In this document: one piece after another, positions 57,385-62,512 of the stretch
Layout: every line of letters starts with the position of its first letter
How positions within the stretch are numbered: position 1 is the stretch's first letter
Position numbers and translations under genes: made by a program
The notes under the pieces: model-generated
The model's database searches: none
What the model was told of the DNA's origin: nothing
The model's input: only the letters and a program-made list of their open reading frames with translations
From: Minisyncoccota bacterium
GTDB lineage: Bacteria > Patescibacteriota > Minisyncoccia > Phycocordibacterales > UBA9973
Assembly: GCA_041658325.1 (NCBI GenBank)
Contig: JBBAAI010000001.1
Span: 154,869 to 218,868 of the forward strand
Length of the DNA stretch: 64,000 nucleotides
Direction of reading: 5' to 3'

Positions 57385-57756
57385 ATGATTCAAAACGAAA
57401 CCTTAGTAAATATAACAGACAATGCCGGAGGCACCGTAGGAAAGGTGTTCAAGATTTTAGGCTCTTCCAAAAAGAGATATGCTACTTTGGGAGAATTGGT
57501 TATTATTTCAGTTAAAATAGCTTCTCCCCGCAAGGCCGTAAAGAAGAAAGATGTGCATCAGGCTGTCGTTGTACGCACTCGTGGTGCTTATAGAAGAAAA
57601 GACGGTTCATATATTCGTTTTGATGATAACGCGGTAGTTATTTTAGAAAAAGGGAAAAAAGATCCAAAAGCAGGCCGTATTTTTGGACCTATTCCAAGAG
57701 AATTGGCAGAGAAAGGATTTCAGAAAATAATTTCCTTGGCGCAAGAAGTTATATAG
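57385..57756 (+). CDS. rplN: 50S ribosomal protein L14
   Basis: MIQNETLVNITDNAGG typical. Confidence 0.95.
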   Translation: MIQNETLVNITDNAGGTVGKVFKILGSSKKRYATLGELVIISVKIASPRKAVKKKDVHQAVVVRTRGAYRRKDGSYIRFDDNAVVILEKGKKDPKAGRIFGPIPRELAEKGFQKIISLAQEVI

Positions 57757-57773
57757 TATTTTAAATAAAACAT

Positions 57774-57992
57774 ATGAAATTAAAAAAAGGAGACAATGTA
57801 AAAATAATCACCGGTAAAGACAAAGGAAAGTCTGGTAAAATTGTGCGAGCTTTGCCTAAAGAAAACAAAGTGATTGTTGAAGGTTTGAATATGATGAAAA
57901 AACATCAACGTCCTAGAAAGTCTGGGGAAAAAGGCACAATGGTAAATATTGCTATGCCTATCCACATTTCTAATGTTAAAAAAGCAGATTAA
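57774..57992 (+). CDS. rplX: 50S ribosomal protein L24 (short KOW form)
   Basis: MKLKKGDNVKIITGKDKGKSGKI KOW motif. Confidence 0.85.
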   Translation: MKLKKGDNVKIITGKDKGKSGKIVRALPKENKVIVEGLNMMKKHQRPRKSGEKGTMVNIAMPIHISNVKKAD

Positions 57993-58002
57993 ATAAAAAA
58001 TT

Positions 58003-58551
58003 ATGAAACACTTAAACGTAAAAGAAAAAGAAATAGAGGCATTTGGAAAAATGAAAGACGCTTTTCATTTTAAAAATGTGATGGCTTCTCCAAAAATGAA
58101 GAAAGTCGTAATCAATGTCGGCACAGGAACGATGGTCAAGAAAGACAAAAATAAAAATGAAGCCGTAGCAGACAGGTTAGCAAAAATTACCGGGCAAAAA
58201 ACTGCCTTGCGAGGAGCGAAGCAATCCATTTCTTCTTTTAAAATTCGCCAAGGAGATCCTGTCGGAGTTGTCGTCACTCTTCGTGGTAAAAGAATGTTCG
58301 CCTTTTTGGAAAAATTAATTAATGTGGCGCTTCCTCGTACGAAGGACTTCCGTGGTATTAATCGTAAAGCAGTAGATAATATCGGGAACTTAACTATCGG
58401 CATCAAAGAACATACCATTTTCCCAGAAACAGCTGATGAAGATATCCGCGACGTTTTCGGTTTGTCTATCACCCTTGTTTCAACTGCAAAAAACAAAAAA
58501 GAAGGCACCGCCTTCTTCGAACTCCTAGGTGTTCCTTTTAAAAAGGAATAA
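58003..58551 (+). CDS. rplE: 50S ribosomal protein L5
   Basis: 182 aa; order; conserved L5 core. Confidence 0.95.
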   Translation: MKHLNVKEKEIEAFGKMKDAFHFKNVMASPKMKKVVINVGTGTMVKKDKNKNEAVADRLAKITGQKTALRGAKQSISSFKIRQGDPVGVVVTLRGKRMFAFLEKLINVALPRTKDFRGINRKAVDNIGNLTIGIKEHTIFPETADEDIRDVFGLSITLVSTAKNKKEGTAFFELLGVPFKKE

Positions 58552-58561
58552 AACTTTCTAT

Positions 58562-58590
58562 TGACTTTTTCTTAAAATATGCTATCCTAT
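58562..58590 (+). promoter_or_regulatory. sigma70-like promoter for DGR target gene
   Basis: ttgact-N17-tatcct; followed by a 46-nt leader hairpin gtcatagcca...tggctatgac (58626-58671). Confidence 0.45.
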
Positions 58591-58750
58591 AAAGATAGTT
58601 CTTTAAAATTACTTGCGAAGGTGGTCATAGCCAAAAGGTGCTTAATATTAGGCATTTCCTGGCTATGACTACCGTTGTGGTTGTCCTCTAGCAAAAACCT
58701 AACCGATGCGTCCTATGGGATGTGTCAAAGAAAAAGGAAGGATGTGCCAA

Positions 58751-59377
58751 ATGGCAAATGCGTCCGAAATCTCTGTCGGTTTAGTTCACGAGCTCGCCAT
58801 CACGGGCACCAAGGTCGGATTCGAGCCCAAAGACTTCGCTACTCTCGCCCACAGCGAGGAAAGGATGTCTTCCATCCTCGGCGTGCTTCATGGTACGCAC
58901 GAGATCCGTCCGATCGATTATGTGATCGATTTCAACTCTCCGGCTCGGTTGCCGTTCAACGGTGCCGTGCTCGAGGTGCACCGCGGAACGGGCATCGTCA
59001 AGCTCGAGAAGAAGGCCGACGGCCTGTATCTCGACGGAAAGAAGCTCACGCTCTTTCTCTCCAAGAAGCAGAAAAAGGGAGGCGTCATCGAGGGCAACAA
59101 GCTTCGCATCGAGCTCGAAAAGAGGGGTAAAAATGTAGGAGCGAAACTCCTTGACCACTTCGTCGAGCATCCAGAGATGTGGCCCGAGGAGTGGAAGAAG
59201 GACGACCAGGGTAATACGCTCTACGTGTTTTTCTGGGATGACATCTTCCGCAACCCGGCGTGTGGCGATCTGTATGTCCGGTGTGGGTGCTGGCGCGGAG
59301 GCGAGGTCATCTCGGGCTACGACTGGCTCGGCGATGACTGGCGCGGCCGCAGCCCGGCTGTCTCTTCCGTAAGTTAG
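58751..59377 (+). CDS. DGR target (variable) protein; C-terminal VR; GC-rich
   Basis: About 208 aa. The 3' 124 bp is homologous to the TR with mismatches only at TR adenines. Start chosen at MANASEISVG (aggaagg SD 9 nt upstream); ORF track alternative start is 58706. Confidence 0.75.
   Translation: MANASEISVGLVHELAITGTKVGFEPKDFATLAHSEERMSSILGVLHGTHEIRPIDYVIDFNSPARLPFNGAVLEVHRGTGIVKLEKKADGLYLDGKKLTLFLSKKQKKGGVIEGNKLRIELEKRGKNVGAKLLDHFVEHPEMWPEEWKKDDQGNTLYVFFWDDIFRNPACGDLYVRCGCWRGGEVISGYDWLGDDWRGRSPAVSSVS
59246..59369 (+). repeat. DGR variable repeat (VR)
   Basis: ttccgcaacccggcg...gctgtctcttccg; 104/124 identical to TR; all 20 mismatches lie opposite TR adenines. Confidence 0.85.
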
Positions 59378-59426
59378 TAATCAGAACTTTGCCTCTTGGA
59401 TCTTCTTGATCCTTGAGACTTAGTCC

Positions 59427-59473
59427 TTGGGCCCTGTGTGTTTGCTTCGGCATTCGCGCAGGGCCTTTTGTTT
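59427..59473 (+). terminator. hairpin + T-run after target gene
   Basis: gggccctg tgtgtttgcttcggcattcgcg cagggcc ttttgtttt. Confidence 0.55.
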
Positions 59474-59706
59474 TGGTAAAATAAATATGGTAGTAGGTGA
59501 ATACGCGAGCGACCACGGTTTCTCGCTACCGAATCCAGTATCCGTATGTCGAGAATATTTGCGACTAAGGTTTCAAATAGGGTGATATACGAAGACACTT
59601 CAAAAATGAAGTTACTTGGTGTAAGGTGCTATGGCATTACGATGCCGAATACGATACAACCTTGAGAGTATTCAAAAGGTGGTGGCACAGAAGGCAGCTT
59701 ACACAT

Positions 59707-59830
59707 TTCCGCAACCCGGCGAATGGCAATCTGTATGTCCGGTATGGGTACTGGAACGAAGGCAAGGTCATCTCGAACTACAACTGGCTCGACAATGACT
59801 GGAACGGCAACAACCCGGCTATCTCTTCCG
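59707..59830 (+). repeat. DGR template repeat (TR)
   Basis: Intergenic copy of VR, rich in AAC/AAT codons (nine Asn codons in VR frame). The open frame in the ORF track (59626..59859) is a consequence of VR homology. Confidence 0.85.
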
Positions 59831-59839
59831 CAACTTACT

Positions 59840-60205
59840 TCATTTCTCTCTCGTCTTAACGGCGGGAGAGTTTTGTTTTAGGAGTTGTCCGTTCCAACCC
59901 CCGAGCATTTTTCCAATTTCTTCTATTTTTTGAGAAAGAACAATATATTTTTTATCGTCAATTGATTTTGCTTCCCATAAAACCATCAAAAGTATTTTTA
60001 GAGTATCTGATTTTCGTATCGCTAACCGAACCCAAGGATGTTTTTCTTCTCGAGATAAAAAAGTAGCGATAGAAACAGCTTCAATAATTTCAATAAACAT
60101 CGTATCAATCTTTAATCCCAAAGAGTGCTTGTGTATTTTGGGCAGAATTTGATAAAAGGTAATCCAGAGAAGATAACAGCTCTTAACTTTTGCCAATAAT
60201 GGCAA
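59840..60205 (-). CDS. avd: Avd-like four-helix-bundle accessory protein (TIGR02436 / 23S rRNA-IVS protein family-like)
   Basis: About 120 aa; EAVSIATFLSRE and EEIGKMLGGW match the AVSIPSNIAEG and eeIgkML signatures of the family; lies between TR and RT on the opposite strand; apparent TTG start. Confidence 0.5.
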   Translation of the reverse strand: MPLLAKVKSCYLLWITFYQILPKIHKHSLGLKIDTMFIEIIEAVSIATFLSREEKHPWVRLAIRKSDTLKILLMVLWEAKSIDDKKYIVLSQKIEEIGKMLGGWNGQLLKQNSPAVKTREK

Positions 60206-60210
60206 AAGTT

Positions 60211-60220
60211 GGGGGGGGGG
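60211..60220. repeat. G10 homopolymeric tract in the divergent avd/RT intergenic region
   Basis: gtt gggggggggg tac, 17 nt upstream of the RT ATG. Confidence 0.9.
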
Positions 60221-60236
60221 TACTATTATAAATACT

Positions 60237-61253
60237 ATGTCCCGAATCCAATTTAGTCATACTTACGACTATATCATTTCTCTAGAAAATCTGCTTTTGG
60301 CGTGGAAAGAATTTGTTGTCGGCAAGAAAAATCGCAAAGACGTAGAAGAATTTCAAAGAAATTTGATGACTAATATAATTTCGTTACATACGGATTTAGT
60401 AAATAAAGCATACAAGCATTCCCAATATGAAGCATTTAATATTTCTGACCCAAAACCGCGCAATATTCACAAAGCGAAAGTACGGGACAGATTATTACAT
60501 CATGCGATTTATCGAGTTTTGTATCCTTTTTTTGACAGGACATTTATTACTGACTCCTATTCTTGCAGAAAAAACAAAGGAACACATAAAGCCATAAACA
60601 GATTCAGAAAATTTGCCTATCAAGCGTCAAAAAATCATACCAGAACAGTTTGGGTTTTGAAAGGGGATATTAAAAAATTCTTTGCTAATATTGATCACGA
60701 AATATTAAAAGGAATTTTGAGAAAACATATTCAAGATAAAAATGTTCTTTGGCTCTTGGGGCAGGTGATAGATAGCTTTTCTTCCCAAAAACATATTTAC
60801 GCTATCGCTGATATATGCAGTAAGGGTTTACCACTCGGCAATCTAACTTCCCAACTTTTAGTAAATATTTATATGAATGAATTTGATCAATTTGTGAAAC
60901 ATAAAATCAAAGCGAAACACTATGTTCGTTATGCGGATGATTTTGTAATTTTGTCGCAAAATAGAAAATGGTTAGAAAATACAATTGTTAGAATAAAAGA
61001 TTTTCTTGAAAATGAACTTATGCTTTCTTTACATCCTGCAAAATTATCCATAAGTACCGTTGCCTCTGGCGTGGATTTTTTGGGTTGGGTTTTATTTCCA
61101 GACCATAGGGTAGTCAGGACTATCACGAAACGGAGGATGTTTCATGGTGTAAAAAAGAAGCACGGGAGTTTTGAAACAGTGCAATCATATCTAGGCTTGT
61201 TAAGCCATGGAAATGCAAGAAAGTTAGAAAGTGAGATAAAAAATTATATTTGA
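60237..61253 (+). CDS. DGR-type reverse transcriptase
   Basis: RT motifs 1-2 (ISDPKPRNIHKAKVRDRLLHHAIY), motif 4 LGNLTSQLLVNIYM with DGR-specific SQ, motif 5 YVRYADDFVIL (YADD); 338 aa. Confidence 0.85.
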   Translation: MSRIQFSHTYDYIISLENLLLAWKEFVVGKKNRKDVEEFQRNLMTNIISLHTDLVNKAYKHSQYEAFNISDPKPRNIHKAKVRDRLLHHAIYRVLYPFFDRTFITDSYSCRKNKGTHKAINRFRKFAYQASKNHTRTVWVLKGDIKKFFANIDHEILKGILRKHIQDKNVLWLLGQVIDSFSSQKHIYAIADICSKGLPLGNLTSQLLVNIYMNEFDQFVKHKIKAKHYVRYADDFVILSQNRKWLENTIVRIKDFLENELMLSLHPAKLSISTVASGVDFLGWVLFPDHRVVRTITKRRMFHGVKKKHGSFETVQSYLGLLSHGNARKLESEIKNYI

Positions 61254-61391
61254 CTCTTTTGGGATTATTTGCTAATATCAAAACAAGGGAATAGGGCTTT
61301 GATTAATCCACTTTTCTCCTTTAATTCTTTAGTTTTAAAGGGTTAAAGAAAAAAAGTGAGATATTAACGGAGCAATCCTGATAAATTATTT

Positions 61392-61577
61392 ATGGCAAAA
61401 ACATCAGTAAAAGCTAGAGCAGCAAAAAAACCAAAATTTTCTACTCGACAGAAAAATCGATGTTTTCGCTGTGGCCGAGGAAATGGTTTTATGCGTGATT
61501 TCGGTATTTGCCGAATTTGTTTTAGAGAATTAGCAAACGAAGGAATGCTTCCGGGTGTTCGTAAATCAAGTTGGTAA
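61392..61577 (+). CDS. rpsZ: 30S ribosomal protein S14 type Z (zinc-binding)
   Basis: 61 aa; [23 protein letters not shown]. Confidence 0.95.
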
Positions 61578-61583
61578 AATTTT

Positions 61584-61970
61584 ATGGATCCAATTTCAAA
61601 CATGATAATAATAATGAAGAACGGAAGCCTTGCAAACAAGGAGTCTGTTTCAATTCCTTTTTCTAAGATGAAAAATGCGATCGGCGAATGTTTGAAAAAA
61701 GCTGGATATGTTTCTGAAGTTTCAAAAAAAGTTAAAAAAGGTCAGCCAGTTTTAGAAGTGGGGCTGATCTATGTAGATAAAAAACCAAAAATCGCAGAAG
61801 TAGAAAGAATTTCTAAACAATCTCGCCGAGTTTATTTTGGTATGAAAGATATTCATTCTGTCCGAAATGGCTCAGGCTTGCTTGTGCTTTCAACACCGAA
61901 AGGAATTTTGTCAGGCAAAGATGCTCGCAAAGAACAAGTTGGAGGCGAAGCATTATTTAGAATTTGGTAG
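61584..61970 (+). CDS. rpsH: 30S ribosomal protein S8
   Basis: order; 128 aa. Confidence 0.9.
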   Translation: MDPISNMIIIMKNGSLANKESVSIPFSKMKNAIGECLKKAGYVSEVSKKVKKGQPVLEVGLIYVDKKPKIAEVERISKQSRRVYFGMKDIHSVRNGSGLLVLSTPKGILSGKDARKEQVGGEALFRIW

Positions 61971-62512
61971 AAAATTTTATGAGTAGAATAGGCAAACAAG
62001 AAATATTAATACCAGCCGGAATAAAGATCACCCAAAGTGGTGGAGTTGTTGCTGTAGTAGGCCCAAAAGGAACACTTACTAAAAATTTCAGAGATGATAT
62101 TACTATTACCATTACTGATAAAATGGTAACTTTAAATATAAAAAGAAACGATAAATTTTCCAAATCTCTCTGGGGTACCTATGCTTCACATATAAAAAAT
62201 ATGATTACTGGTGTCCAAGTTCCATATCAAAAGAAATTAATTTTAGAAGGAGTTGGATTTAAGTCTGAGGTTAAGGGCAAAGAACTCCATTTCGCTCTTG
62301 GTTTTTCTCATCCTGTTATTGTAAAAATTCCAGAAGGCATTACTGCTACTGCAGAGAAAAACAATATTACCATTACTGGTATTGATAAAGAATTAGTTGG
62401 TAGTTTCACCGCGGCTGTTCGTGCCCTGAAGAAACCAGAACCATATAAAGGTAAAGGAATGCGTTATGAAGGTGAAGTTATCAGACGAAAACAAGGCAAG
62501 AAGACAGTGTAA
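61964..62512 (+). CDS. rplF: 50S ribosomal protein L6
   Basis: order; two-domain L6. Confidence 0.9.
   Translation: MVENFMSRIGKQEILIPAGIKITQSGGVVAVVGPKGTLTKNFRDDITITITDKMVTLNIKRNDKFSKSLWGTYASHIKNMITGVQVPYQKKLILEGVGFKSEVKGKELHFALGFSHPVIVKIPEGITATAEKNNITITGIDKELVGSFTAAVRALKKPEPYKGKGMRYEGEVIRRKQGKKTV

Follow-up and report, generated by a model that had tools for sequence, protein, structure and literature searches.

The DNA analysed here, referred to as the window, is a 64-kb stretch of a Candidatus Paceibacterota (Patescibacteria/CPR) genome. Near its end, a cassette is present as a 2.7-kb insert (58552-61391) in a ribosomal-protein operon, where it lies between rplE (58003-58551) and rpsN (61392-61577). 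In order, the cassette comprises a promoter-like site, a leader of ~150 nt, the target gene, a hairpin, a terminator, the unit for an RNA that carries the TR, avd on the minus strand, an intergenic gap with a run of ten G residues, and a reverse transcriptase (RT) gene. The genes and the repeat pair are as follows.

58751-59377, plus strand: DGR target gene, 208 aa; the VR forms its last 42 codons
59246-59369, plus strand: VR, in frame (target codons 166-207 of the 208-codon ORF); 20 adenine-coded positions differ from the TR
59707-59830, plus strand: TR, non-coding, between the target and RT genes; contains 32 adenines and, read in the frame of the VR, ten AAY codons
59840-60205, minus strand: avd (accessory variability determinant), 121 aa; transcribed towards the TR RNA and away from the RT gene
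60237-61253, plus strand: DGR reverse transcriptase gene, 338 aa; RVT_1 match with E 1.5e-25

The best solved relative of the RT is the Bordetella phage DGR RT (8ub7), with an E value of 1.9e-42 over residues 9-323. The next RT classes, those of group II introns and retrons, score at about 1e-19, which is 23 orders of magnitude worse. The protein contains the motifs LGNLTSQ, aligned to IGSLTSQ, and YADD. Judged by its best solved relative and these motifs, the enzyme is an RT of the DGR lineage. Avd proteins are found in most, but not all, DGRs. The avd product matches Pfam bAvd (PF22296) at an E value of 3.9e-9, with 37.4 bits against a cut-off of 40, and NCBIfam DivGenRetAVD (NF033474) at an E value of 1.9e-14 over profile positions 1-102 of 104, with 53.8 bits against a cut-off of 80. 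Both matches are significant by E value and cover the length of the models, but both scores fall below their cut-offs. The placement of avd next to the RT gene is kept in related loci.

Scans with the target family were used to collect related loci, giving 65 genome loci at species level plus another two contigs. The layout of target, TR, reverse-strand avd and RT is found in ~25 of these 67 related genome loci, and comparisons of the repeats were carried out on the 24 loci with a VR/TR pair that could be placed in register. A metagenome scan with the conserved RNA motif described below added 119 loci, 97 of which carry the same RNA.

No flanking direct repeats, which would be a mobile-element signature, were found around the cassette, and a search of IMG/VR for relatives of the target, carried out as a test of phage origin, returned none. 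Ribosomal-protein genes have been reported inside or adjoining five CPR DGRs (Wu et al. 2018, PMC5758913). Insertion into the ribosomal operon was considered as a family trait and rejected, as it is unique to this organism among the sampled relatives; in L065 (1778-2575), the L5-S14 junction is intact. A promoter-like site (61250-61278) precedes rpsN.

Adenine-specific differences between VR and TR

Direct comparison of the VR with the TR gives a gap-free alignment of 124 positions, at an offset of 461, with 20 mismatches. The TR base is A at all 20 of them, and the VR base is G at 16, C at three and T at one. Twelve of the 32 TR adenines are unaltered in the VR, and the hypergeometric probability that all 20 mismatches would fall on A is 3.8e-15. 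The alignment that a sequence-only reading of this DNA had claimed, 124 bp with 20 adenine-only differences, was therefore reproduced. The same reading had named mismatches at non-adenine TR positions as grounds for abandoning a DGR interpretation, and the number of such positions altered is 0 of 92. Its 15 listed codon changes are all correct, although some of its residue counts are not. The TR holds ten AAY codons among its 42, nine of which are altered while Asn168 is kept, in place of the nine Asn codons counted before, and the VR encodes three Cys residues (C171, C178 and C180 of the 208-aa protein) and not four. The list of VR residues given for the Asn positions had mixed Asn and Tyr positions together, although the codon changes underlying it were right.

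An independent repeat search of the window recovered the same pair as a direct repeat of 124-131 bp with 83-84% identity. A degenerate pattern made from the first 48 nt of the repeat matched at the VR and TR sites alone, with 0.00 matches expected in shuffles, and this search identified no second VR and no third repeat copy in the 64-kb window. Beyond 59369 and 59830, weak similarity of the VR (TAAGTTAGTA) to the TR (CAACTTACTT) extends for 7-10 nt more and includes three non-adenine differences. The 3' sides of the two repeats thus diverge at non-adenine positions just past the paired segment, and different structures lie downstream, with a hairpin (59393-59417) following the VR. The relatives are alike in this respect. 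The repeats of a DGR would be expected to end differently on their 3' sides (IMH/IMH*), with an inverted repeat behind the VR.

A direct repeat of this length and identity, with its copies 461 bp apart, could be read as an ordinary segmental duplication of the 3' end of a gene that has since been decaying by normal mutation. This explanation is refuted by the one-directional, base-specific pattern, in which every difference lies on an adenine of one and the same copy. The pattern is repeated in dozens of related loci, and the pair is flanked by an RT gene, avd and a conserved RNA. We give duplication practically no chance of being correct.

Among the 24 registered pairs, the VR departs from the TR at 418 of 713 adenines, as compared with 21 of 2197 other positions. 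When the VRs of different loci are compared with one another, they differ at 64% of the columns in which both TRs have adenine, versus 1.2% of those in which both have the same other base. The TRs of L010 and L036 are 98.3% identical; the corresponding VRs differ at 18 of the 30 positions with a TR adenine and at three of 90 others. Adenine-only VR/TR pairs are also seen in many of the metagenome loci. As the pattern holds here, in the related loci and in the metagenome loci, sequence alone could not give the DGR reading stronger support.

Among the substitutions, A>G predominates, accounting for 16 of 20 changes here and for 61% family-wide; a misincorporation bias of the RT or selection on the protein may be a cause of this skew. 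An excess of A>G would also be expected if one copy had been altered by adenine deamination or editing and not by reverse transcription. However, transversions make up four of the 20 changes here and 39% of those in the family (A>T 26%, A>C 13%), and these are not a product of deamination. The cassette, moreover, carries a DGR-type RT and Avd and no deaminase gene. Deamination is therefore considered very improbable.

The TR contains 20 codons that are open to variation, namely the ten AAY codons and others of the types TAY, GAC, ATC, GAA and AAG. Each AAY codon gives access to 15 possible amino acids, and the TR as a whole to ~2.5e18 theoretical protein variants. Nineteen of the 20 variable codons are stop-proof, the exception being AAG. 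This codon (59763-59765), which specifies Lys in the TR where the VR has Glu, is mutable to TAG, a change by which a fraction of retrohoming events would cut the target 23 codons short.

A conserved structured RNA around the TR

The TR sits inside a conserved non-coding RNA of ~390 nt that has its own -10-like box and terminator. In addition to the TR, the following parts of this unit were delimited.

59474-59482, plus strand: putative extended -10-like box of the TR-RNA unit, TGgTAAAAT
59489-59704, plus strand: 5' structured domain of the DGR RNA, from RNAalifold and pair counts in 17 and 28 loci
59831-59879, plus strand: TR 3' flank, in which 59831-59845 pairs with 59604-59618 and a hairpin at 59846-59870 is followed by TTTTGTTTT

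In the alignment of the family, the sequence TGnTAnAAT is kept immediately upstream of the conserved RNA, and the 215 nt that precede the TR are conserved family-wide. The 5' domain begins with a pair of hairpins (59489-59536 and 59543-59591). The 5' arm of a long-range helix (59604-59618) comes next, and then a region of branched hairpins (59619-59704), which stops 2 nt before the TR. In the alignments of 17 and 28 loci, 95.6-96.8% of structure cells are paired, versus 40-52% in slid controls, and 45-53 pairs show compensatory changes. With 28 sequences, the latter amount to 53 of 74 pairs, versus 17-28 in slid controls. None of 500 shuffles reached the observed pairing values. The strand of the RNA is fixed as plus by its G-U pairs. 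The 5' domain was found in 36 loci from genomes and 97 from metagenomes (more than 130 in total), and neither the TR RNA nor the target leader had an Rfam match at E<=1 when both strands of 57500-62000 were searched.

The long-range helix (59604-59618/59831-59845) closes a loop around the branched domain and the TR. It is 91% paired, versus 43-58% in slid controls, with compensatory changes in three pairs alone, and it was also recovered by a separate inverted-repeat search of the window. The helix rests mainly on conserved complementarity. The TR 3' flank overlaps the last codons and the stop codon of avd on the opposite strand, such that the 3' strand of the helix encodes the end of avd. The adjoining 3' hairpin has a terminator-like score, and five of its seven pairs covary.

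The Bordetella DGR RNA is reported to require a 'cPRT stop duplex' and an 'Avd-binding stem-loop', elements that have been predicted in other taxa too (bioRxiv 10.1101/2023.10.23.563531). By analogy with that RNA, the helix joining the TR flanks and the stem-loop directly 3' of the TR may be the corresponding elements here. The survey in the same study covered just 40 nt upstream of the TR, whereas the partner strand of the helix described here is located 89-103 nt upstream of it. The two RNAs also differ in the position of their most structured part, which is 5' of the TR here and 3' of it in Bordetella.

The RNA is not tied to one kind of target. Among the 97 metagenome loci, many have it adjoining a target with no detectable relationship to the present one. 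L015 (4074-4485) and ~30 metagenome loci, among others, combine the same RNA scaffold and avd/RT core with TRs and targets for which no relationship to those of the window could be detected. In L083, the RNA motif occurs twice upstream of a single avd-RT pair, and in L050 the leader and poly-G segments are duplicated. Target and RT co-evolution was not detected in pairwise identities, which are uncorrelated (r 0.01, Mantel P 0.46) over an RT identity range that is narrow and with target N-termini that are modular.

In ~40 of the 67 related genome loci, a target homologue is present without an RT gene within 8 kb. Loci with a target and leader and without a TR, avd or RT in that distance include L007, L020, L022, L029, L030 and L031. 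In some RT-less relatives, just 60-140 nt from the beginning of the DGR RNA are retained, and these truncated remnants indicate that decay of the DGR is common. The RT-less relatives look like DGRs that have decayed and left their target frozen.

Frequent decay raises the question of whether the present element is itself a fossil, in which a past DGR made the VR and which is now silent or inactive, for instance through a promoter repeat at an OFF length, with the VR effectively fixed. Two other assemblies of the locus (SRR8449812 and ERZ27247322) are 100% DNA-identical to the window, and a scan of metagenome contigs with all TR adenines masked returned no VR variants, both of which would fit such a state. 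On the other hand, the avd and RT ORFs are intact, the latter with its catalytic motifs, as is the structure of the RNA. The VR and TR show no non-adenine difference, as opposed to five in the decayed relative L046 and four in L056. The absence of any such difference implies that the last VR replacement was recent on an evolutionary scale. A fossil is therefore judged unlikely.

We are highly confident that the pair represents the VR and TR of a complete chromosomal DGR. The DGR interpretation offered in the sequence-only reading is upheld, with RT, Avd, an in-frame VR and a non-coding TR all adjoining in the expected geometry. In such an element, the TR would be transcribed from its own promoter within the ~390-nt RNA, whose succession of 5' domain, TR and 3' hairpin-terminator is borne out by covariation. 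Homology to Bordetella bRT-Avd and the substitution pattern suggest that RT and Avd would copy the TR to cDNA and misincorporate opposite adenines. The cDNA would then replace the last 124 bp of the target coding sequence, by which up to 20 codons, including the ten AAY codons, would be rewritten in the C-terminal domain. The present VR allele would be one outcome of this process.

The target gene, its leader and its base composition

The target gene is accompanied by four further features.

58561-58588, plus strand: promoter-like site, TTGACT-16-TATCCT with TG, from a motif scan; putative target promoter
58595-58750, plus strand: structured leader of the target mRNA, with hairpins H1 (58621-58672) and H2 (58705-58726)
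59393-59417, plus strand: imperfect hairpin from fold prediction, starting 16 nt past the target stop codon
59429-59474, plus strand: target-gene terminator, a strong hairpin and T-run; related loci have a GC hairpin and T-run

The target protein has a helical plus beta N-terminal part and a C-terminal domain with weak resemblance to the C-type-lectin fold. Known DGR variable proteins with this fold are Mtd (1yu0), Treponema TvpA (2y3c) and Thermus TaqVP (PMC6328139). Foldseek searches for the fold of the target against PDB and BFVD gave no match, and searches for its function with Pfam, NCBIfam and two large homology searches led to unannotated Patescibacteria proteins alone. The ~90 members of the family all belong to Patescibacteria or to metagenome contigs without a name, and no member has a Pfam domain. 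The target contains neither a signal peptide nor a membrane segment, and the domain-less targets are probably intracellular. The same target protein occurs in a third record, and the three sequences of its 90% cluster differ in the called start codon alone.

The promoter-like site is conserved in 26 loci, and TTGACA-17-TATAAT is found at the equivalent position in aligned loci. The leader is present upstream of ~40 related target genes and is retained even in relatives without an RT gene. Its hairpin H1 shows compensatory changes in 13 of 19 pairs, with 95.9% of cells paired, and H2 is 82% paired. The 3' strand of H2, GGATGTGTC (58718-58726), recurs as GGATGTGCC (58740-58748) just before the start codon. 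An alternative pairing that would hide the start was considered and found no support; the complementarity is present, but its covariation is no better than that of shuffles.

In the DGRs of Bordetella and Legionella, an inverted repeat downstream of the VR aids retrohoming. The imperfect hairpin at 59393-59417 is a candidate equivalent of this repeat by its position, and a comparable extended hairpin is predicted at the same place in most of the 24 related loci. The segment that contains both this hairpin and the terminator (59370-59480) has a predicted fold of -46.3 kcal/mol (z = -6.4).

The region from 58650 to 59860, which covers the target, its 3' region and the TR, has a GC content of 57%. 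The GC3 of the target outside the VR is 0.73, as compared with 0.30 for both RT and avd and 0.29 for genes of the host. In a set of 63 loci, mean GC3 is 0.65 for the target versus 0.44 for the host. RT GC3 follows that of the host (r 0.88), a relation that target GC3 lacks. A high target GC content is found throughout the clade (set L001-L067 and L072-L187), including in other target families that share the RNA and RT core. Two explanations were rejected. The excess is not a by-product of adenine mutagenesis, as third positions are low in both A and T and are mainly C-enriched, and co-transfer of the whole cassette does not agree with an RT GC3 that tracks the host when target GC3 does not. 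Behind the GC excess there may be a constraint that has gone unrecognised, or target modules may have been reassorted.

The avd-RT tract and the place of the locus among DGRs

The divergent start codons of avd and RT are separated by a gap of 31 nt, which contains a further feature.

60211-60220, no strand assigned: G10 homopolymer, with TACTATTAT directly after it

G10 is the sole G/C run of at least 7 in the 64-kb window. The same site was surveyed in 67 related loci that include the starts of both genes, and the survey took in the window, 17 genome loci (L002, L005, L010-L012, L014, L016, L019, L021, L025, L026, L036, L037, L041, L050, L052 and L059) and 49 metagenome loci. A run of G7-G14 (mode 10) is present in 58 of them and G6 in two, three have (GT)8-13 instead (L011, L102 and L181), and four have nothing. 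In 800 kb of genome loci there are 40 G/C runs of at least 7, and 15 of these lie within 125 nt upstream of an RT gene (17 loci). As poly-G can be substituted by a different slippage-prone repeat, what is kept is arguably mutability and not the G residues as such, which points to a phase-variable switch. The tract is thus a candidate slipped-strand switch that may govern expression of RT and avd.

Phase-variable promoters that depend on simple sequence repeats include those with poly-G in Neisseria porA and opc, poly-C in Bordetella fim, and TA repeats between the divergent Haemophilus genes hifA and hifB. The tract described here is similar in being a slippable homopolymer between divergent genes, beside a -10-like box, with a length of G6-G14 among relatives and (GT)n in three of them. 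It differs from these promoters in that its length variation is known between relatives, from sequence data only. If the proposal is correct, slippage in the tract would toggle RT and Avd ON and OFF, and only part of a population would diversify its target. No report of a homopolymer or phase-variable switch in DGRs, or of target GC or codon usage, was found in the literature searched, which did not cover one possibly relevant 2026 preprint.

The cassette resembles the DGR of Bordetella phage BPP-1 (mtd-avd-TR-brt; 8ub7) in full-length RT homology, an Avd homologue, adenine-only mismatches, an AAY-rich TR and a VR at the 3' end of the target. DGRs of CPR bacteria form a clade that has been catalogued since 2017. 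In the CPR set of Wu et al. 2018 (PMC5758913), architecture B3 has the order TR-(avd)-RT, and the present locus is similar, with a reverse-strand avd between the TR and the RT gene. Its host range in Patescibacteria and its domain-less targets are likewise those of DGR clade 2 of Roux et al. 2021 (PMC8144416). It further shares with CPR DGRs a chromosomal, non-viral location, a small target without signal peptide or membrane segment, and a C-terminal VR. Given a B3 layout and the host and targets of clade 2, the cassette belongs to the already described Patescibacteria DGR clade, with no difference in kind. Neither the structured domain 5' of the TR, nor the leader of the target, nor the tract of poly-G or (GT)n, nor the high GC content of the targets is mentioned in the main texts of PMC5758913 and PMC8144416, and the ~390-nt RNA, leader, poly-G tract and GC excess seem to have been undescribed so far.

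Taken jointly, these features suggest a DGR in which RT and Avd would be switched stochastically by the repeat, the ~390-nt RNA would be arranged unlike that of Bordetella, and the GC content of the target would reflect an unrecognised constraint or module reassortment. We put this combined reading forward tentatively, as possible rather than probable.

As a DGR, the locus is one more example, and its value lies in the non-coding features that were exposed by a comparison of ~160 loci. For the regulation of DGR activity, the conserved, slippage-prone repeat between avd and RT provides a concrete hypothesis. The covarying RNA offers a second, differently arranged natural case for template positioning, priming and stopping. 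The GC excess of the target, together with the leader, may bear on how domain-less targets are expressed or exchanged in very small genomes.
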